Shown piece after piece: positions 8,904-45,161 of a DNA stretch of 64,000 nt (position 1 is the first letter of the stretch; each line of letters opens with the position of its first letter). The notes beneath the pieces were generated by a model. The model was not told the origin of the DNA. It searched no databases and was given only the letters and a program-made list of their open reading frames with translations. Origin of the DNA: a virus; the IMG/VR virus record IMGVR_UViG_3300029319_008653, positions 29,040 through 93,039 of that record; one strand, given 5' to 3'. The position numbers were made by a program, and so were the translations under genes.

Positions 8904-9953
8904 CTATCGTAAGCCAGTAGATTCAAATACATCTCTCGCTACACCAGCAGAAAAGCCTCCTTCTATACCTTTAACAATAACAGATATAGCATTATGACTA
9001 TGAAGACTTTCATTATGAGAAGCTACAATTTTAAAGTCTTTAATACGAGACTCACTATTAAGTTTTTCATATAGTAACCTTACAGCATCTTCTACAAACT
9101 TAAGAAATGCACCGTTCTTTTCAGCAAAAGCTTGCTCATCTTCTCTCTTAACCATAACTTGAGTTTCAGTCTGCAAAGCAGCTAAGCATAGTTCTTGAAT
9201 ATCTTCAATCCATAACATATCGTCAAACTTAACACTAACACGAGCTACACTTCTTTGACTATGAGGTACAGTAGCGCGATTACGATACTTTTCAGCATGC
9301 TCACTTAACTCAAAACTACAAGGACAAGCAGAAGAGTAAACAAAGTCAAAATGAATATATTTCTTAAACTCACCATCTTTAGTAAGATCACCTTCGAATA
9401 CAACATCATAATATTGATAGCCTTCTAAACCACTACGTAAACTTTTTTGCTTGATAGGATATGAAATCTTAAGCATTATACGAGAATCAAATACTTTAAG
9501 ATTTTCTTTATAAGTTTCTAATACATCTTTAATTTTATCAATACTAAATATCTCATCTTTATGATCATAAAAGCTTCTCATAATACGAGACATATTAATA
9601 CCTTTCTTATGAGCTTCTAATGATACACTACCAGTTACACTAGTTTCTAATTCAATAGTTTTACCATCTCTCTTTTTATAATTAAGAGGTAATCTAAAAT
9701 TATGTATACCAACTTGCTGAATAGGTACAGCTGCACCTTGAATTAAACTAGAAGGACCATTTTGAAGATCGGGTAGAGAAGATATATATTTTTTATCGGC
9801 ATTAACATTATCATCATAAACTCTTATAGGAGGAAAATAGCCTTTAGCAAACTCTTCTCCCATAATTTCCTTAGCAATAACATCTTTTTCACCAGTTAGT
9901 TCATCATCTTCACCTAACCACTCATAACCAGTATCTGAAACTTTTTTACTCAT
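8904..9953 (-). CDS. folE2: GTP cyclohydrolase IB
   Basis: PDLQ, QVGI, KGINMSR, SACPCS, HSQRS, VKREDE, ESLHSHNA. Confidence 0.93.
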   Translation of the reverse strand: MSKKVSDTGYEWLGEDDELTGEKDVIAKEIMGEEFAKGYFPPIRVYDDNVNADKKYISSLPDLQNGPSSLIQGAAVPIQQVGIHNFRLPLNYKKRDGKTIELETSVTGSVSLEAHKKGINMSRIMRSFYDHKDEIFSIDKIKDVLETYKENLKVFDSRIMLKISYPIKQKSLRSGLEGYQYYDVVFEGDLTKDGEFKKYIHFDFVYSSACPCSFELSEHAEKYRNRATVPHSQRSVARVSVKFDDMLWIEDIQELCLAALQTETQVMVKREDEQAFAEKNGAFLKFVEDAVRLLYEKLNSESRIKDFKIVASHNESLHSHNAISVIVKGIEGGFSAGVARDVFESTGLR

Positions 9954-10001
9954 ACCTCTATTATATAGTATTAGACTAAAAAATCAATAAATAAAATTGA
10001 T

Positions 10002-12239
10002 ATGAGTAGTTTTTTAAAAAAAATCAATGAGTATAAAGCACCTGTAATGGCTCCGAAATCAGAAGATGATAGTGCTGCCATGGCAGGTATGAAGACAGGA
10101 TTTGATAAACCAAAACAAGCTGTTGCTTCAGCAGGTAGAAAAGTTACCGGTGTAATGGGTAGAGTAGCCTCGGGGTTAGGAAAAGTTAAAAAAGCTGCTG
10201 ATATGATTAAAACTGTAGGTACAGGTGAATGGAGTATAGATAATTTATTAGACGGAATGATTAAAAAAGCTAGAGATCAGCAATCAGGAAAAATAACTTT
10301 ATTCGGTCAACCGGGTCACAACTTAGTAATGTTAGGTAAAGGTTATATTGAATCTATAAAATCTATGCAAGGTAAAGAGCCTGATGAAATAGTAGATGAT
10401 ACAGAAGCAGTTGATGTAGAAAAATCTGTAGAAAAAGGTGATGTTGAAACTAAAAAAGAAGGTGATGTAGAGACAAAAAAAGAAGGTGATGTAGAGACTA
10501 AAAAAGAAAGTTTTCTTGATAAAGTTGATAATCTTCTTTTTGAAGTAACAAAAGCTGAAGGTGATAAAATAAGAGCGAAAGCTGAAGAATTAGGTATACC
10601 TATAAAAACTAAATCAGGTAAACCTATAGGACCTGCAAGATTACAAGGTAGAATAGATAGAAAATTAGCAGAATTAAAGGCAGATGAAAAACAAAGAAAA
10701 TTAGATCTTACAGATGATGACAAAGCGGTGAATAAAGCAACTGATGCTAAAGAATCAGAAAAAGAAACTAAAGAAGAAACTAAAGAAGATACTAAAGAAA
10801 AAACCAAAGAAGATGCTAAAGAAGAAACCAAAGAAGATACTAAGAAAAGTACTGGTGATAAAACGTTTAAACCAATTGGTGATACGGTAAGCGCAAAAGC
10901 TAGATTAACACCGTTAGTTGCAGATGTACTAGGTGTTAAAGATGAAGAGTTGGTTAGATATACAAATTATATATCAAAAAATTTCGGTGCAGTATTAACA
11001 GCAATTCAAAAAGCTTATGGACCAGATTCTGAATATGCTAAAAAAGAAGACAGTAAGCCTTTAGATTTTACATTTGAATTGAAGGGATTTGGGAGAATTT
11101 CAGATAAGGAGCAAGAAGATTTAAAGAAAAAACAAGAAACTAAAGAGGTAAAAGAATCAACTATTTTAAAATTAATAGAAGAAAGCGTTGCAACTGATAT
11201 AGCTGATAAAGCTGGAAGAGACGGTGCAGAAAAATTAGTTAAAGGTATGGAAGCTATATACCCAGGTAAACAAATTACTTTTAAAACACCTGAACCGGAT
11301 CCTAAGCCTGAACCTGAACCAGAAGATGAACCTGAAGTTGAACAAGATATTCTAACTACTGCTACTAAATTTTCACTAGTTAACGGAAAGGATTATGGAG
11401 AAGAGAGACAATATACATTAAAGCCTCAAGAAGATAAAGTTGGTGAATATCTTACAGCAAAGGGTATAAAGTTTATTACATATGTACAAAAACCAAAACC
11501 AAGAGCACTTACCGGCGGTAAAGGTGGTCAAATAGGTTCAAATTTTGAATTATCTAAATCCTCTCAAGGTAGATTAATTGCCTATGATGATGAAAATCAA
11601 GTAATATCTCAGTTAAATGTTGATGCTCCATATGAGTGGAATTCAACTGAAAAGGCATATTCATTATCTCGAAATAATACAGTTAAAATAGGACCTGACC
11701 CTGCTAAAGGCGAAATGGGATTTGCTACTGATGCTGAAGAAATATATTTTTCTGACCCCAATAGAAAATATATAACGTTAGTTAAAGATCGAAAACAAGC
11801 GGATGAATCACTAAAAAATGCTAATTACCCCGGCAATAAAATATTACTTGGAGGAGACTTAAGAGCAGAGTTTGATCAAAAACTATTTAAAAAATATGCT
11901 ATAGTTAGAACTGATGAAGAAGGTAATTTTATAGTTAATGTAAGGCAGCCTTTACCTTTAGCTCCTGCTGATGTTTTAGAAATGCAAAAACGTAATAGAG
12001 CTTTAGCTGGTCCAAGTGCTGGTAAAACTGCTACTGGCGGTACAGGAAAAACTGAAACTACTACAACGACTACAACGACGACTACACCAGGAGTTAAAAA
12101 AGATGTTAAGCAAGGTCAAGGTGTTCTAATTGATCCAACTACGGGTAAACCAATAACAGGTGAGAGAGTACCTAAAGATCAGAATGAAGAAGAAAAAGTA
12201 GTAAGTAAATATTTGGAAAAAATAGAAGAATATTTATAA
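10002..12239 (+). CDS. large low-complexity protein, probably virion/internal head
   Basis: 745 aa with K/E/T/P repeats; late-type AATAAATA upstream; repeated [IL]-x-E sites. Confidence 0.55.
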   Translation: MSSFLKKINEYKAPVMAPKSEDDSAAMAGMKTGFDKPKQAVASAGRKVTGVMGRVASGLGKVKKAADMIKTVGTGEWSIDNLLDGMIKKARDQQSGKITLFGQPGHNLVMLGKGYIESIKSMQGKEPDEIVDDTEAVDVEKSVEKGDVETKKEGDVETKKEGDVETKKESFLDKVDNLLFEVTKAEGDKIRAKAEELGIPIKTKSGKPIGPARLQGRIDRKLAELKADEKQRKLDLTDDDKAVNKATDAKESEKETKEETKEDTKEKTKEDAKEETKEDTKKSTGDKTFKPIGDTVSAKARLTPLVADVLGVKDEELVRYTNYISKNFGAVLTAIQKAYGPDSEYAKKEDSKPLDFTFELKGFGRISDKEQEDLKKKQETKEVKESTILKLIEESVATDIADKAGRDGAEKLVKGMEAIYPGKQITFKTPEPDPKPEPEPEDEPEVEQDILTTATKFSLVNGKDYGEERQYTLKPQEDKVGEYLTAKGIKFITYVQKPKPRALTGGKGGQIGSNFELSKSSQGRLIAYDDENQVISQLNVDAPYEWNSTEKAYSLSRNNTVKIGPDPAKGEMGFATDAEEIYFSDPNRKYITLVKDRKQADESLKNANYPGNKILLGGDLRAEFDQKLFKKYAIVRTDEEGNFIVNVRQPLPLAPADVLEMQKRNRALAGPSAGKTATGGTGKTETTTTTTTTTTPGVKKDVKQGQGVLIDPTTGKPITGERVPKDQNEEEKVVSKYLEKIEEYL
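10432..10508 (+). repeat. 24-bp tandem coding repeat x3 (KKEGDVET)
   Basis: aaaaaagaaggtgatgtagagact-type units. Confidence 0.85.
10760..10843 (+). repeat. 12-bp degenerate coding repeat, about 7 copies (KEET/KEDT)
   Basis: aaagaagaaact / aaagaagatact units. Confidence 0.8.
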
Positions 12240-28705: not shown

Positions 28706-29680
28706 ATGAGCAAATATTTAATTACTGGTATAACTGGGTTTGCAGGTCCCCATCTAGCTAACCTACTTCTTGAGGAGGGCCATGAAGTTCATGGCATAGT
28801 ACGAACACCCAATGGTAGAGAGCTTGATTTAGTAGATATAATTAGCGTAGAGAATTTAGAAAAAATAAAGTTTCATCACATCGATCTTAAACATTATTAT
28901 GGAGTAAAAAAATTATTTGATAATTATGAATTTGATGGGGTATTTCATTTAGCAGCTCAATCACACCCACCAACGAGTTTTAAAGATCCAGTTTTAACTT
29001 GGGAAGAAAATGTCAACGGTACAGTAAACTTAATAACAGCTCTCGAAGGCAGTAAGACAAGATTTATGTTCTGCTCTACTAGTGAAGTATACGGAGACAC
29101 TTGTAAAGATGTAGGATTATTAAAAGTAGATACACCATTAATACCTAGTAACCCCTATGGTACTTCTAAAGCTGCAATGGATATGTATGTAAGAGAGCGC
29201 AGTGCTAATGGTTATTTAGATGGTTTCGTAACTAGAGCATTTAGTCATACTGGTCCTCGTAGAGGTAAGATTTTTAGTATTAGCTCAGATGCATATCAGA
29301 TTGCTAATATGGTTTTAGGAAGACAAGAATTAGTTTTAAAAATAGGAAATCTACAAACTGAAAGAGTAGTTATAGATGTAAGAGACTGTGTAAACGCTTA
29401 TTATAAATTAATGTTAAATCCTGAAACTAAAGGAATGGCATTTAATGTTTGCGGAAGCGATGTTCATAAAATGCAGCACTACACAGATCTACTAATTGAA
29501 AAATCTGGTTTAAAAGGAGTAGAACAAAAAATTTATGAACCTTACTATCGACCTATTGATATACAGGTTCAGATAGGAGATTCAAGTGAACTAACTAATA
29601 TGACAGGATGGAAGCCTGAAATATCTCTAGAACAAACAATGGGAGATTTATTATCATATTGGGTAGATAAACTCAAATGA
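28706..29680 (+). CDS. GDP-mannose 4,6-dehydratase / GDP-sugar reductase family
   Basis: TGITGFAG, HLAAQSH, STSEVYG, PYGTSK, HTGPRRG, DVRD. Confidence 0.88.
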   Translation: MSKYLITGITGFAGPHLANLLLEEGHEVHGIVRTPNGRELDLVDIISVENLEKIKFHHIDLKHYYGVKKLFDNYEFDGVFHLAAQSHPPTSFKDPVLTWEENVNGTVNLITALEGSKTRFMFCSTSEVYGDTCKDVGLLKVDTPLIPSNPYGTSKAAMDMYVRERSANGYLDGFVTRAFSHTGPRRGKIFSISSDAYQIANMVLGRQELVLKIGNLQTERVVIDVRDCVNAYYKLMLNPETKGMAFNVCGSDVHKMQHYTDLLIEKSGLKGVEQKIYEPYYRPIDIQVQIGDSSELTNMTGWKPEISLEQTMGDLLSYWVDKLK

Positions 29681-42884: not shown

Positions 42885-43634
42885 ATGAATAAAAAATATA
42901 TTATCATTGGAGCAGTAATTGCTGTAGTTGCATATTTTGCAATGTGCGGTAAGTGCGAAGCTCAAGAAGTAAAGCAAGAAAAAACATGGAGCGTAGCAAC
43001 TGAAGTTGGTTACTACGAATCAAGAATCTCCGGAGGATTGGTTGGTGCAGAAGACGCTCCTTATATTAAAGCATCTACAAAGATTGGCGATTTTTACGGC
43101 TTGTCTTTAGTAGGTGGAGTTGAATATGTACAGGACAATGAAGCTGATCAACTTCATGGCTCTATTGGTACAAAACTTTCAACCCCTATTGGTAGTATTG
43201 ATACCCGATTAGTTGCTCACAAGAAAGAAGATGCAGATGCTACCTTTGAACTTGTTGGTACTTACGGCGTTAATTTACTAAAATTCGTTGATACTGAACT
43301 AAGCTTAAGTGTAGAAAATGGATCATATGAAATATCTCGTGATACTCTAGACCCCATTTATACCCCAGCTATATTAGTTTCTAAAACCTTTAACACTGGT
43401 ACGTTTGATATTATTTTCGGCGGTGAATACGGTGCATCTTATGGGTTTGATGAAGACTATGAATATGTACACGGTTTTGTAAGAGCTGAAACAATCGTTA
43501 ATGATGTTGCAAAGCTATTCATTCAAAGTAATTGGGTAAATAGTGATGTTGTTTTTGCAGATGGTATTACATATAGTGATGCAGAACTTGATTTTGATCA
43601 ATCAGTTACTGCTGGTTTAGCTTTTACTTTCTAA
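42885..43634 (+). CDS. outer-membrane beta-barrel (porin-like) protein
   Basis: Signal peptide ending CEA, alternating beta strands, C-terminal GLAFTF BAM signal. Confidence 0.75.
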   Translation: MNKKYIIIGAVIAVVAYFAMCGKCEAQEVKQEKTWSVATEVGYYESRISGGLVGAEDAPYIKASTKIGDFYGLSLVGGVEYVQDNEADQLHGSIGTKLSTPIGSIDTRLVAHKKEDADATFELVGTYGVNLLKFVDTELSLSVENGSYEISRDTLDPIYTPAILVSKTFNTGTFDIIFGGEYGASYGFDEDYEYVHGFVRAETIVNDVAKLFIQSNWVNSDVVFADGITYSDAELDFDQSVTAGLAFTF

Positions 43635-43652
43635 ATAATATCTAAACACAAT

Positions 43653-43691
43653 AAGCCCCCTACTGATAATCTCGGTAAGGGGCTTTTTTTT
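43653..43691. terminator. intrinsic terminator between convergent genes
   Basis: AAGCCCC...GGGGCTTTTTTTT. Confidence 0.8.
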
Positions 43692-43694
43692 GCA

Positions 43695-43868
43695 TTACTT
43701 GCTCCAAGCTGAACCACGGTACATACCGTGCTTAACTTCTTTAGCAGGTTTTGCTTTATTCGGATCGTAAGTGTTTCCTCTGTAAGAAGCGATGCCGGGT
43801 TTCTTTGCCACCGCTTTTTCAGAAACTTCCACTTTCGCTCCTCTATATTGCATATATGGAGTTGCCAT
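43695..43868 (-). CDS. 57-aa YRG-repeat (DUF4278-like) protein
   Basis: QYRG, SYRG, MYRG; AAGGA Shine-Dalgarno upstream. Confidence 0.75.
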   Translation of the reverse strand: MATPYMQYRGAKVEVSEKAVAKKPGIASYRGNTYDPNKAKPAKEVKHGMYRGSAWSK

Positions 43869-43890
43869 TGTGTTATTCCTTGTTTTACGG

Positions 43891-43972
43891 TGCGTTCCTT
43901 CCCCTACCCCATATTTCCAGCATAGAATTATGTACAGAAAATAGGGTACTTCCGCCCTTTCGGGTGAACGAG
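43891..43972 (-). ncRNA. glutamine riboswitch (glnA / glutamine-I class)
   Basis: CGUUCA-CCC GAAA GGG-C-GGAAGUA-CCCUA...UAGGG-GAAG-GAACG gives P1, P2, the E-loop and P3, in the 5' leader of the YRG peptide gene. Confidence 0.85.
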
Positions 43973-43998
43973 TTATACATATATTTATTATTATATAG

Positions 43999-44407: not shown

Positions 44408-44638
44408 TTAATCTTTCTTAAGTAATCCAATTAAGATAAGAAGAGCTATAAGCCCTACTAACCCATTTTGACCCCCAATATTGGAGACAATACCTGTAAG
44501 ATTTCCGATAACATCTGCACCAAAAAGTGCGCCCGAACCGAATAATATTTCAGCTATAATGCTGATAGAAATTAAACCAAGACCTAAATCGATAATTGGT
44601 TTAATACCGTCTGTTATGAATGTAGTTATTTTGTTCAT
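44408..44638 (-). CDS. small two-TM membrane protein
   Basis: EILFG...DVIGNL...GLVGLIAL. Confidence 0.65.
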   Translation of the reverse strand: MNKITTFITDGIKPIIDLGLGLISISIIAEILFGSGALFGADVIGNLTGIVSNIGGQNGLVGLIALLILIGLLKKD

Positions 44639-44744
44639 GAATAGTATTTAATCTTTTCAAGGAAAGATTCCTTGAAAAAAAAATAGTAGTTAAATGTTGA
44701 TAAGTTTAGTTTATACTATATAATACGGGTATAAATAATTATCT

Positions 44745-45161
44745 ATGACTAGACTAACTACATATAGAGGAGATAACCCATTAAAAATCATTGAGGATAG
44801 CCTTAGCGGTTTCCTTAATTTAACGCCGGTCTTCCATAATTTGGAAGAAGTATATAAAACTGGAGATCAAGTAAGATTCGCGAACGGTAAAGATTCGTTG
44901 AATATTCAAATTGATATTCCAGGATGTAAAAAAGATGACCTTGATATAGATGTTGACTCTGATCAGCGTGAAGTTTATATTAAGGGTAAACGCACCGTTA
45001 GAACTAATGACGGAGAACAAACCCAGACCATGAATAGAAGTTTTTCTATTGGTAAAGAATACGATCTTAATAAAATTAAGTTTACGTATGAATATGGTGT
45101 ACTCGAGGTGTCAGTACCTAGACGTAAAAAGGAAGAATATATTAAAAAATATTCAGTCTAA
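44745..45161 (+). CDS. hsp20: small heat-shock protein (Hsp20)
   Basis: DIPGCKKDDL, RSF, YEYGVLEVSVP; TATAAATA at 44730-44737. Confidence 0.88.
   Translation: MTRLTTYRGDNPLKIIEDSLSGFLNLTPVFHNLEEVYKTGDQVRFANGKDSLNIQIDIPGCKKDDLDIDVDSDQREVYIKGKRTVRTNDGEQTQTMNRSFSIGKEYDLNKIKFTYEYGVLEVSVPRRKKEEYIKKYSV

Follow-up and report, generated by a model that had tools for sequence, protein, structure and literature searches.

We analysed a stretch of 64,000 nucleotides (nt) of viral DNA (IMG/VR record IMGVR_UViG_3300029319_008653, positions 29,040 to 93,039; hereafter the window, with coordinates counted from its first letter) that carries, on its minus strand, a glutamine riboswitch followed by a gene for a 57-amino-acid (aa) peptide of the DUF4278 family. 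We consider it likely that this is a functional-looking translational riboswitch cassette, made up of a late-promoter box, a type-1 aptamer, an expression platform closed by a long-range clamp and the DUF4278 peptide, which would act as an ON switch in an uncultured marine T4-like phage that is probably not a cyanophage, with Kiritimatiellales as the candidate host or donor. The analysis shows what the aptamer is, to which family the peptide belongs, that the cassette is conserved, that P3 covaries, what platform is predicted and how the cassette is distributed over genomes; within this reading, we infer the ligand, the direction of switching, the timing, the host and the function of the peptide. 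Few phage riboswitches are known and what they control has mostly been guessed; here the unit is compact (promoter box, 84-nt aptamer, 75-nt platform, 57-codon gene, terminator) and comes in many natural variants. Its parts are listed below (SD, Shine-Dalgarno; ORF, open reading frame; MFE, minimum free energy).

43982-43989, minus strand: T4-type late-promoter-like box AATAAATA, 11 nt upstream of P1 (sequence)
43889-43972, minus strand: type-1 glutamine aptamer RF01739 (cmscan, full model)
43970-43966 with 43897-43893, minus strand: P1, CGUUC with GAACG (sequence)
43964-43955, minus strand: P2, CCC-GAAA-GGG (sequence)
43954-43947 and 43901-43897, minus strand: E-loop strands CGGAAGUA and GAAGG (sequence)
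43902-43946, minus strand: extended P3 of 45 nt, with two competing registers in the subgroup of the window (alignment A1, energies)
43892, minus strand: linchpin C, just 3' of P1, with the region of its G partner also in the sequence
43887-43892, minus strand: 5' strand of the predicted clamp, CACCGU, beginning at the linchpin C (MFE fold of 19 of 19 cassettes, RNAalifold)
43875-43880, minus strand: SD region AGGAAU, predicted to pair with the anti-SD (MFE folds, RNAalifold)
43695-43868, minus strand: gene of the 57-aa DUF4278 peptide with three YRG motifs (Pfam), stop codon at 43697-43695
43821-43826, minus strand: predicted anti-SD GUUUCU inside the ORF (MFE folds, RNAalifold)
43809-43814, minus strand: 3' strand of the predicted clamp, GCGGUG (Ala-Val codons GCG GUG), invariant in 19 of 19 cassettes
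43644-43683, minus strand: terminator-like hairpin with a 9-bp GC-rich stem, an 11-nt loop, a U-rich tail and an A-run before it (RNAfold, -22.2 kcal/mol)

To identify the aptamer, we scanned the window with cmscan against all Rfam families. RF01739 (type-1 glutamine riboswitch, glnA RNA motif) was the sole family matched, at 43889-43972 on the minus strand, with 42.3 bits against a gathering threshold of 35 and an E-value of 7.4e-6 for 64 kb; the 84-nt match covers model positions 1-53 of 53 without truncation and is the only RF01739 match in the whole 93-kb contig. The conserved stretches CGUUCA, CGGAAGUA and GAAGGAACGCA are all there, and the sole departure from the model is a 37-nt insert in P3, the last hairpin. 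An earlier note on this DNA, made from the letters, had read a glnA-motif fold with P1, P2 and E-loop in this leader and had called for a search with the glnA and Downstream-peptide models: every element lies where it had been placed, the first model matched above gathering, and the second (RF01704, Glutamine-II) gave no match at gathering in the window. The Glutamine-II class was ruled out by this lack of an RF01704 match together with the presence of a P3 hairpin. In relatives P2 varies in a compensatory manner (CCC/GGG, CCCC/GGGG, UCUCU/AGAGA), and P1, being invariant, and most of P2, invariant as well, are uninformative on covariation. The fold of the whole leader has a z-score of 0.07, which is not evidence against the aptamer as plain MFE statistics are blind to it. 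Judged by its sequence, the element is a genuine type-1 glutamine riboswitch aptamer, lying in the 5' leader of the DUF4278 ORF and ending 20 nt ahead of the AUG, and it is by homology of the aptamer that sensing of glutamine, and with it of nitrogen status, is predicted. The cassette is beyond chance: it is kept in syntenic relatives and its P3 carries compensatory changes.

P3 measures 45 nt in the window; in the short aptamers of phages and bacteria included in our comparison it has about 10-15 nt. When we scanned viral and metagenome contigs for the exact core and by pattern, the long-P3 cassettes recovered fell into three groups: group A, to which the window belongs (L019/L133, L136, L239, L240, L243, L245, L249-L251), group B (L097, L235, L236, L242, L246, L248, L252) and group C (L233/L234, L238). 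Four high-GC pattern matches (L237, L241, L244, L247) lacked the P1 and P2 context and were discarded as chance. Ordinary P3 hairpins of 13-15 nt were found in L123, L124, L128, L130 and L145, all of them with a YRG peptide; in this short-P3 set the P3 sequences are wholly different yet complementary. In alignment A1, which holds 14 sequences, two pairs at the base of P3 are changed on both sides (CG to AU and CG to UA), as is one pair of the distal helix (AU to GC or the reverse), and standard pairing holds in 97.4% of P3 cells, as opposed to 36-50% once the 3' partners are slid by 1-3 columns. The length of about 45 nt given in the earlier note holds, and the two registers proposed there were recovered by folding in group A: in nearest-neighbour predictions, which ignore the tertiary structure of the aptamer, a slipped register reaches -21.7 kcal/mol versus -19.8 for the best aptamer-competent fold in the window, and -25.5 versus -19.4 in L136. 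The slipped register of group A also pairs the UA of GGAAGUA. For group B the aptamer-competent fold is the MFE fold. As separate observations, the terminal loop of the group B P3, UUUUCCU, is complementary to the SD sequence AGGAAAA (-7 to -12 kcal/mol, z down to -4.5; e.g. L235, L236, L246, L097), and the group C P3 (L233, L238) holds a GGAGG/CCUCC pair that mimics an SD and anti-SD; the P3 extensions of these two groups may be a second layer of control.

To describe the expression platform, we folded 19 distinct cassettes from P1 to about position +65 of the ORF. The MFE folds of all 19 contain the CACCGU:GCGGUG clamp, whose strands lie about 75 nt apart, and inside it an SD:anti-SD helix, so that the SD (AGGAA, 43880-43876) and the AUG (43868-43866) are enclosed, with the first YRG codons folding as a small hairpin within the platform (also 19/19). 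The z-scores of the 19 folds against shuffles range from -1.9 to -6.5, and the RNAalifold consensus of alignment A2 retains both the clamp and the SD:anti-SD helix. The clamp ends on the codons GCG GUG, which are invariant in the 19 cassettes despite their rarity (4.0% of Ala codons and 3.0% of Val codons, respectively, in the long ORFs of the contig); the only variation seen in it is C-G to U-G and, at the last position, U-G, C-G or, in two sequences, an unpaired A·G. Support for the clamp thus comes, at the level of sequence, from conservation and rare codons and not from covariation. The platform of the window has a predicted energy of -24.8 kcal/mol, which becomes -17.4 when CAC is held unpaired and -15.1 when CACCGU is held unpaired (costs of 7.4 and 9.7), and the SD of the isolated platform has an unpaired probability of 0.01. 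A long-range clamp reaching into the ORF is a new feature and, from these models, a candidate expression platform; the mechanism of the type-1 class is still called unclear in the literature, and the clamp would be a candidate for that class at large.

A T4-type late transcription unit has TATAAATA at -10 and no -35 element, and starts about 6 nt downstream. The octamer AATAAATA at 43982-43989, called late-type in the earlier note, is a variant of TATAAATA, lies at the right distance and is kept in relatives: TATAAATA or AATAAATA is found 10-13 nt upstream of the CGTTC of P1 in nearly all phage cassettes. The predicted start leaves about 5 nt ahead of the aptamer, and in the sequence the placement of the box fits a T4-type late start a few bases before it. 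At the other end of the unit, the hairpin at 43644-43683, which was missed by a consensus terminator scanner on account of its loop of more than 8 nt, is in the folding model probably a bidirectional terminator shared with a convergent gene for an outer-membrane-protein-like (OMP-like) protein. Searching a 2.2-kb stretch of the window against one seawater metatranscriptome, we retrieved a single contig, which covers 43704-43942 at 100% identity and spans the leader from within P3 to the end of the ORF, a result that hints weakly at transcription. The cassette is covered in neither run X17 nor run X20, and we give the uncovered parts no weight. In run X17 a metatranscriptome contig with one mismatch matches window positions 44622-44893, the 5' end of hsp20 (44745-45161) and the sequence upstream of it, and in run X7, whose label is an organism name and not 'metagenome', the phage stretch occurs at 100% identity on six short contigs of 184-620 letters, the longest contig of that run being 187 kb.

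Put together, the cassette would work as follows. In the type-1 aptamer, when glutamine is bound, the C after P1 pairs long-range with a core G and a short helix on P1 melts; in Synechocystis this C and its neighbours have been proposed to pair with the ribosome-binding site, and the switch turns the synthesis of IF17 on (PMC6212724). In the phage, a T4-type late promoter would start the transcript a few bases ahead of the aptamer. Without glutamine, the CACCGU-GCGGUG clamp would close a compound hairpin that holds the SD in a helix with the anti-SD within the ORF; binding of glutamine would capture the first bases of the clamp and remove about 7-10 kcal/mol of platform stability, allowing ribosomes to load, so that translation of the 57-aa DUF4278 peptide would take place late in infection and only when the cell is rich in glutamine. 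It would be an ON switch, as with gifB of Synechocystis.

A real aptamer that works in the opposite direction or at another level, either through glutamine stabilising P1 stacked on the clamp (OFF) or through the long P3 as the true platform, seems unlikely to us. The clamp continues straight from P1 and could stack on it, but just one of the type-1 switches has been tested to date, and that one turns expression on (PMC6212724). A P3 platform would draw on the SD-complementary loop of group B, the GGAGG/CCUCC pair of group C and the two registers of the window's subgroup; short-P3 cassettes, however, share the clamp without any anti-SD in P3, and an anti-SD in P3, good as a platform in groups B and C, was rejected for the window, where the P3-SD duplex does not outdo shuffled sequences (-4.4 kcal/mol, z +0.7), and was retained as a rival only.

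The product of the ORF matches Pfam DUF4278 (PF14105) over residues 28-56 with 29.4 bits against a cut-off of 25.3, its only Pfam match, and the peptides of the phage relatives and of Kiritimatiellales likewise score above the cut-off (27.9-38.5 bits). The SD and the 57-aa protein with three YRG repeats were thus correctly read in the earlier note. The YRG-peptide family aligns over its full length and comprises at least 154 related peptide clusters in metagenomes; relatives were also seen on the long metagenome contigs P0013, P0020, P0039 and P0079, and the ESM Atlas holds a look-alike DUF4278 cluster with Verrucomicrobiota members. We found no relative of the peptide by sequence search in the PDB and nothing by tblastn against 50,697 phage records, and blastn of a short-P3 YRG cassette against cultured phages also returned nothing; when cassettes were compared with cultured phage records, a match came up for the short-peptide cassette alone (phage Melnitz, E-value 0.2). 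AlphaFold gave a model with a predicted local distance difference test (pLDDT) of 58.9 and a predicted template-modelling score (pTM) of 0.18, with short beta-hairpins at the YRG motifs. In this model the peptide is probably disordered on its own, and such low confidence suits a peptide that folds on a partner. Our best guess is that it imitates the glutamine-induced nitrogen regulator of the host and is produced late, in nitrogen-replete cells only; its target could be glutamine synthetase, PII, AmtB or another protein.

To place the phage, we used the contig, its relatives and cultured phages. The contig has a GC content of 31% and is rated 44% complete by CheckV, implying a genome of about 210 kb, and PHROG matches to the major head protein, the portal and the tail-sheath stabiliser make it T4-like. 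Its best cultured matches are cyanomyoviruses, with 33-35% identity for the head protein and about 30% for the portal. A related head protein occurs in at least 596 viral contigs, and two complete relatives of 217 and 230 kb (G005, G006) have a head protein 72-75% identical. No psbA (PF00124) was found in the contig (44% complete), in a 74-kb relative (G001) or in the two complete relatives. Marine picocyanobacteria carry the type-2 aptamer only (PMC6212724), and with head and portal identities of 30-35% and no psbA a cyanobacterial host is therefore unlikely. The marks of a marine T4-like cyanomyovirus, close structural genes and psbA, are both lacking, and the phage is probably not a cyanophage, which bears out the earlier note's impression of a non-cyanobacterial phage. 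A simple pelagimyophage relative was ruled out by HTVC008M, which has no RF01739 match, and CsgG, the curli hallmark of pelagimyophages, is absent from the contig; no tRNAs were found in the window. The two group A relatives L019/L133 and L136 share the gene order of the window (nrdB, OMP-like gene, cassette, small ORF, hsp20 and on to the head gene), and L097 shares the genes flanking the cassette. Among relatives the peptides have diverged to about 60% identity while the locus, ORF, box, platform and terminator were kept.

The earlier note had gone further and suggested that the effector might target glutamine synthetase (GS); that the phage infects a cyanobacterium or mimics its regulators, with the peptide as an IF17-like inhibitor of host GS, is in our view quite unlikely. 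The hsp20 and speD-type genes occur in cyanomyoviruses too, and the low GC would fit high-light Prochlorococcus, but the marine picocyanobacteria have the wrong aptamer type and neither the contig nor its complete relatives carry psbA. Riboswitch-DUF4278 pairs are typical of cyanobacteria (PMC6212724, PMC6316151), and DUF4278 is the N-terminal moiety of IF17, 82 residues long and followed by a C-terminal part (PMC6316151); this moiety stabilises IF17 and improves inhibition, yet it is dispensable, and it is the IF7-like C-terminal moiety that binds GS (PMC6316151, PMC6212724). The peptide is only 57 aa long and therefore has no room for an IF7-like GS-binding moiety, and the C-terminal IF7-like part that marks IF17 (GifB) is not seen in it, judged from Pfam and the family alignment with no direct alignment to IF7. 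The proposed GS target, drawn only from the identity of DUF4278 with the dispensable moiety, is thus unsupported. Furthermore, a profile built from 13 phage peptides (A3) never exceeded 31.8 bits in an even draw of 401 cyanobacterial genomes and reached only 24-28 bits on genomes of Prochlorococcus size, compared with full-length matches of 60.5-63.5 bits in Kiritimatiellales, where the closest cellular counterpart that we found resides.

To survey bacterial counterparts, we scanned GTDB with a fixed pattern, using one genome per species, a design that is blind to long-armed cassettes. This yielded a total of 55 type-1 aptamers with the same CAC tail (L254-L308), nearly all in metagenome-assembled genomes (MAGs) or single-amplified genomes of marine heterotrophs, with two proper cyanobacteria, one Candidatus Obscuribacterales MAG and two Kiritimatiellales among them. 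In SUP05-like gammaproteobacteria the aptamer, together with a CACCAAACU...AGUUUGGUG hairpin, precedes gltB and gltD; SAR86 has tandem aptamers in front of GS and of a porin gene; short basic peptides follow it in SAR116, Levibacter, Rhodospirillaceae and OM43-like betaproteobacteria, and a 70-aa protein in Pelagibacteraceae. The OM43-like carriers are MAGs; for cultured OM43 strains, the Melnitz study reports no such switch (PMC9004378).

Each of the two Kiritimatiellales genomes has a second, longer RF01739 aptamer, which is followed by CACCGUAAA..., a MATLQYRG...YRG...YRG peptide and a terminator. Searching 89 Kiritimatiellales genomes with RF01739, we found it in six (G010, G011, G169, G170, G174, G201), all of 0.9-1.3 Mb, and in none of 150 other genomes sampled from the phylum; the five cassettes that we read all have the MATLQYRG peptide and terminator. 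They resemble the phage cassette in aptamer core, CACCGU clamp (folded in L316 and L317, there with UGCGGUG), three-YRG peptide and terminator, and differ from it in having a sigma-70-type promoter rather than a late box and an extended P2 rather than P3. Pairwise identity between phage and Kiritimatiellales peptides is 39-50%. In G010, a Pontiellaceae MAG, the cassette lies at about 9790-10054 on the minus strand of L318 (G010:C3:18000-37999), where it closely follows amtB and ilvC at one end and is the immediate downstream neighbour of proA and proB at the other; it is chromosomal, in a neighbourhood of amino-acid and nitrogen genes. On these sequence grounds, marine Kiritimatiellales with small genomes are the best candidate host or donor of the cassette.

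A broader scenario is possible, though we hold it as tentative: the glutamine-riboswitch/YRG module would be, instead of a cyanobacterial speciality, a nitrogen-status module of streamlined marine Kiritimatiellales (Planctomycetes-Verrucomicrobia-Chlamydiae, PVC), and a T4-like lineage with genomes of about 210 kb would infect them, having captured the module, re-wired it to a late promoter and added the long P3, so as to make a mimic of the host regulator only in glutamine-rich cells. If true, a large uncultured phage clade, with at least 596 contigs as judged by head protein, would gain its first host lead, and there would be a tractable system for learning what stand-alone DUF4278 peptides do.

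The reading of the cassette as a late, glutamine-induced ON switch with a Kiritimatiellales link has to face a series of observations that weigh against it. Box-type octamers are common in AT-rich DNA, with 34 in the window, and a box by itself is weak evidence; the metatranscriptome contig could reflect carry-over of DNA. In the subgroup of the window the slipped P3 register is 2-6 kcal/mol more stable than the aptamer-competent fold. The clamp shows no double-compensatory changes in the 19 cassettes and lies partly in coding sequence. Its release raises the unpaired probability of the SD only from 0.01 to 0.06; the SD:anti-SD helix persists in the equilibrium model, and the ON logic therefore needs ribosomes to exploit the lower total stability. 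As to the host, no more than 6 of the 89 genomes of the order carry the aptamer, and 1 of 151 in the sample drawn from the phylum, the OMP-like and DUF4032-like neighbour proteins find nothing in the 89 Kiritimatiellales genomes, the DNA similarity of the phage to these genomes is weak, and the link is drawn from the cassette, a single locus. That the cassette is a recently captured passenger without a role in infection is very improbable: it is absent from both complete relatives, and similar cassettes in several unrelated T4-like lineages suggest mobility, but an intact ORF, box, platform and terminator are held at the same locus across relatives with peptides about 60% identical, and the rare codons are maintained.

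We then compared the cassette with known systems. The type-1 aptamer class was described by Weinberg in 2010 (PMC2864571), and glutamine riboswitches have been reported in T4-like cyanophages (PMC9964418, PMC9602691) and in OM43 phage Melnitz, Pelagibacter phage Mosig and pelagimyophage metagenome-assembled viral genomes (MAVGs) (PMC9004378). For a non-cyanobacterial phage to carry a glutamine riboswitch is thus, as such, nothing new, and the rarity suggested by the earlier note does not hold as written, with such switches published in T4-like phages and the type-1 aptamer widespread in marine heterotrophs. Nothing is overturned either, as the aptamer class, the DUF4278 link and the presence in phages are all published. 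New is a riboswitch-DUF4278 cassette in a phage with a late-promoter box, given that in the literature searched DUF4278 is placed in cyanobacteria or, once, in a cyanophage with a Synechococcus host; within the same literature, a 45-nt P3 with structure and covariation, the conserved clamp platform that extends into the ORF and the Kiritimatiellales homologues are also new. The latter extend riboswitch-DUF4278 pairs to a non-cyanobacterial bacterial lineage, and stand-alone DUF4278 peptides would be widespread players in marine nitrogen physiology.

Among the closest known systems, the leader of gifB in Synechocystis sp. PCC 6803 (PMC6212724) belongs to the same Rfam family with the same conserved core, precedes a protein with DUF4278 and has the same proposed logic, the C after P1 and its neighbours sitting in an inhibitory helix that glutamine melts. 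The window differs in that its 57-aa product consists of DUF4278 and lacks the IF7-like part that binds GS, its P3 has 45 nt, its predicted inhibitory helix forms over a long range as a clamp with codons some 75 nt further downstream, its promoter is of phage late type where that of gifB is controlled by NtcA, and its carrier is a phage. PMM1846/Yfr6 of Prochlorococcus MED4 is likewise a stand-alone short DUF4278 peptide behind a glutamine aptamer and its expression is raised by nitrogen excess (PMC6212724, PMC6316151); that aptamer, however, is of type 2 (RF01704), and the stand-alone Prochlorococcus DUF4278 proteins are called "IF17-like" without a demonstrated target (PMC6212724). Melnitz, Mosig and the pelagimyophage MAVGs (PMC9004378), to which the window phage is only distantly related, are T4-like marine phages of non-cyanobacterial hosts that likewise carry a type-1 aptamer. 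The aptamer of Melnitz scores 52.8 bits with RF01739 and has a core nearly the same as that of the window, but a short P3; behind it lies an ORF for a short basic peptide, not a DUF4278 YRG peptide, and in the Melnitz-type platform the SD is covered by a local hairpin, CAC(C/U)U...(G/A)GUG.

The Melnitz switch has been interpreted as controlling a transfer-messenger RNA (tmRNA) (PMC9004378). In the Melnitz record (L253, MZ577097, 2503-2672) we observed, after the aptamer, an SD (GGGGAGAG) and a plus-strand ORF of 32 aa (MTLYQQWCYLKAQKEYRRRQKILMYFRIRLKG) that lacks annotation; the ORF annotated there has 33 aa and lies on the opposite strand. Short basic peptides akin to the 32-aa one also stand behind the aptamer in many contigs of IMG/VR and in MAGs of SAR116, Levibacter and OM43-like bacteria. 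The Melnitz switch probably gates the 32-aa peptide rather than the upstream tmRNA. The gene under marine phage glutamine switches appears to be a small peptide, probably in Melnitz as well.

A further set of more than 80 distinct leaders from viral contigs (L001-L119 except L019 and L097; e.g. L010 5349-5442, minus strand) combines a sigma-70-type promoter with a type-1-like aptamer and precedes a 45-aa peptide with two YRG motifs (MSKVVYRGVEYDT...). Their P3 (AGCCGACG/CGCCGACU) shows covarying G-C/U-A positions and co-deletions, and its insert of about 45 nt resembles a second P1-P2 unit. RF01739 does not report the L010 variant at gathering, and this type may be missed by standard annotation. 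Another complete viral genome of 149.5 kb with terminal repeats and a GC content of 29% (G002, L138/L149) has a short RF01739 aptamer (53.9 bits) ahead of a 36-aa peptide (MAMNYFTLYQFKKMISNHQREILNKVLNYRIHKITN), and its nrdA is 46% identical to that of the window.

The OMP-like gene next to the cassette (42885-43634, plus strand) converges on it and appears to share its terminator hairpin. It encodes a 249-aa protein with no Pfam match, which has a signal peptide and ends in ...LAFTF, an OMP-like beta-barrel signature. HTVC008M also encodes an 'outer membrane porin', and the SAR86 porin gene under glutamine riboswitches is found in L254.

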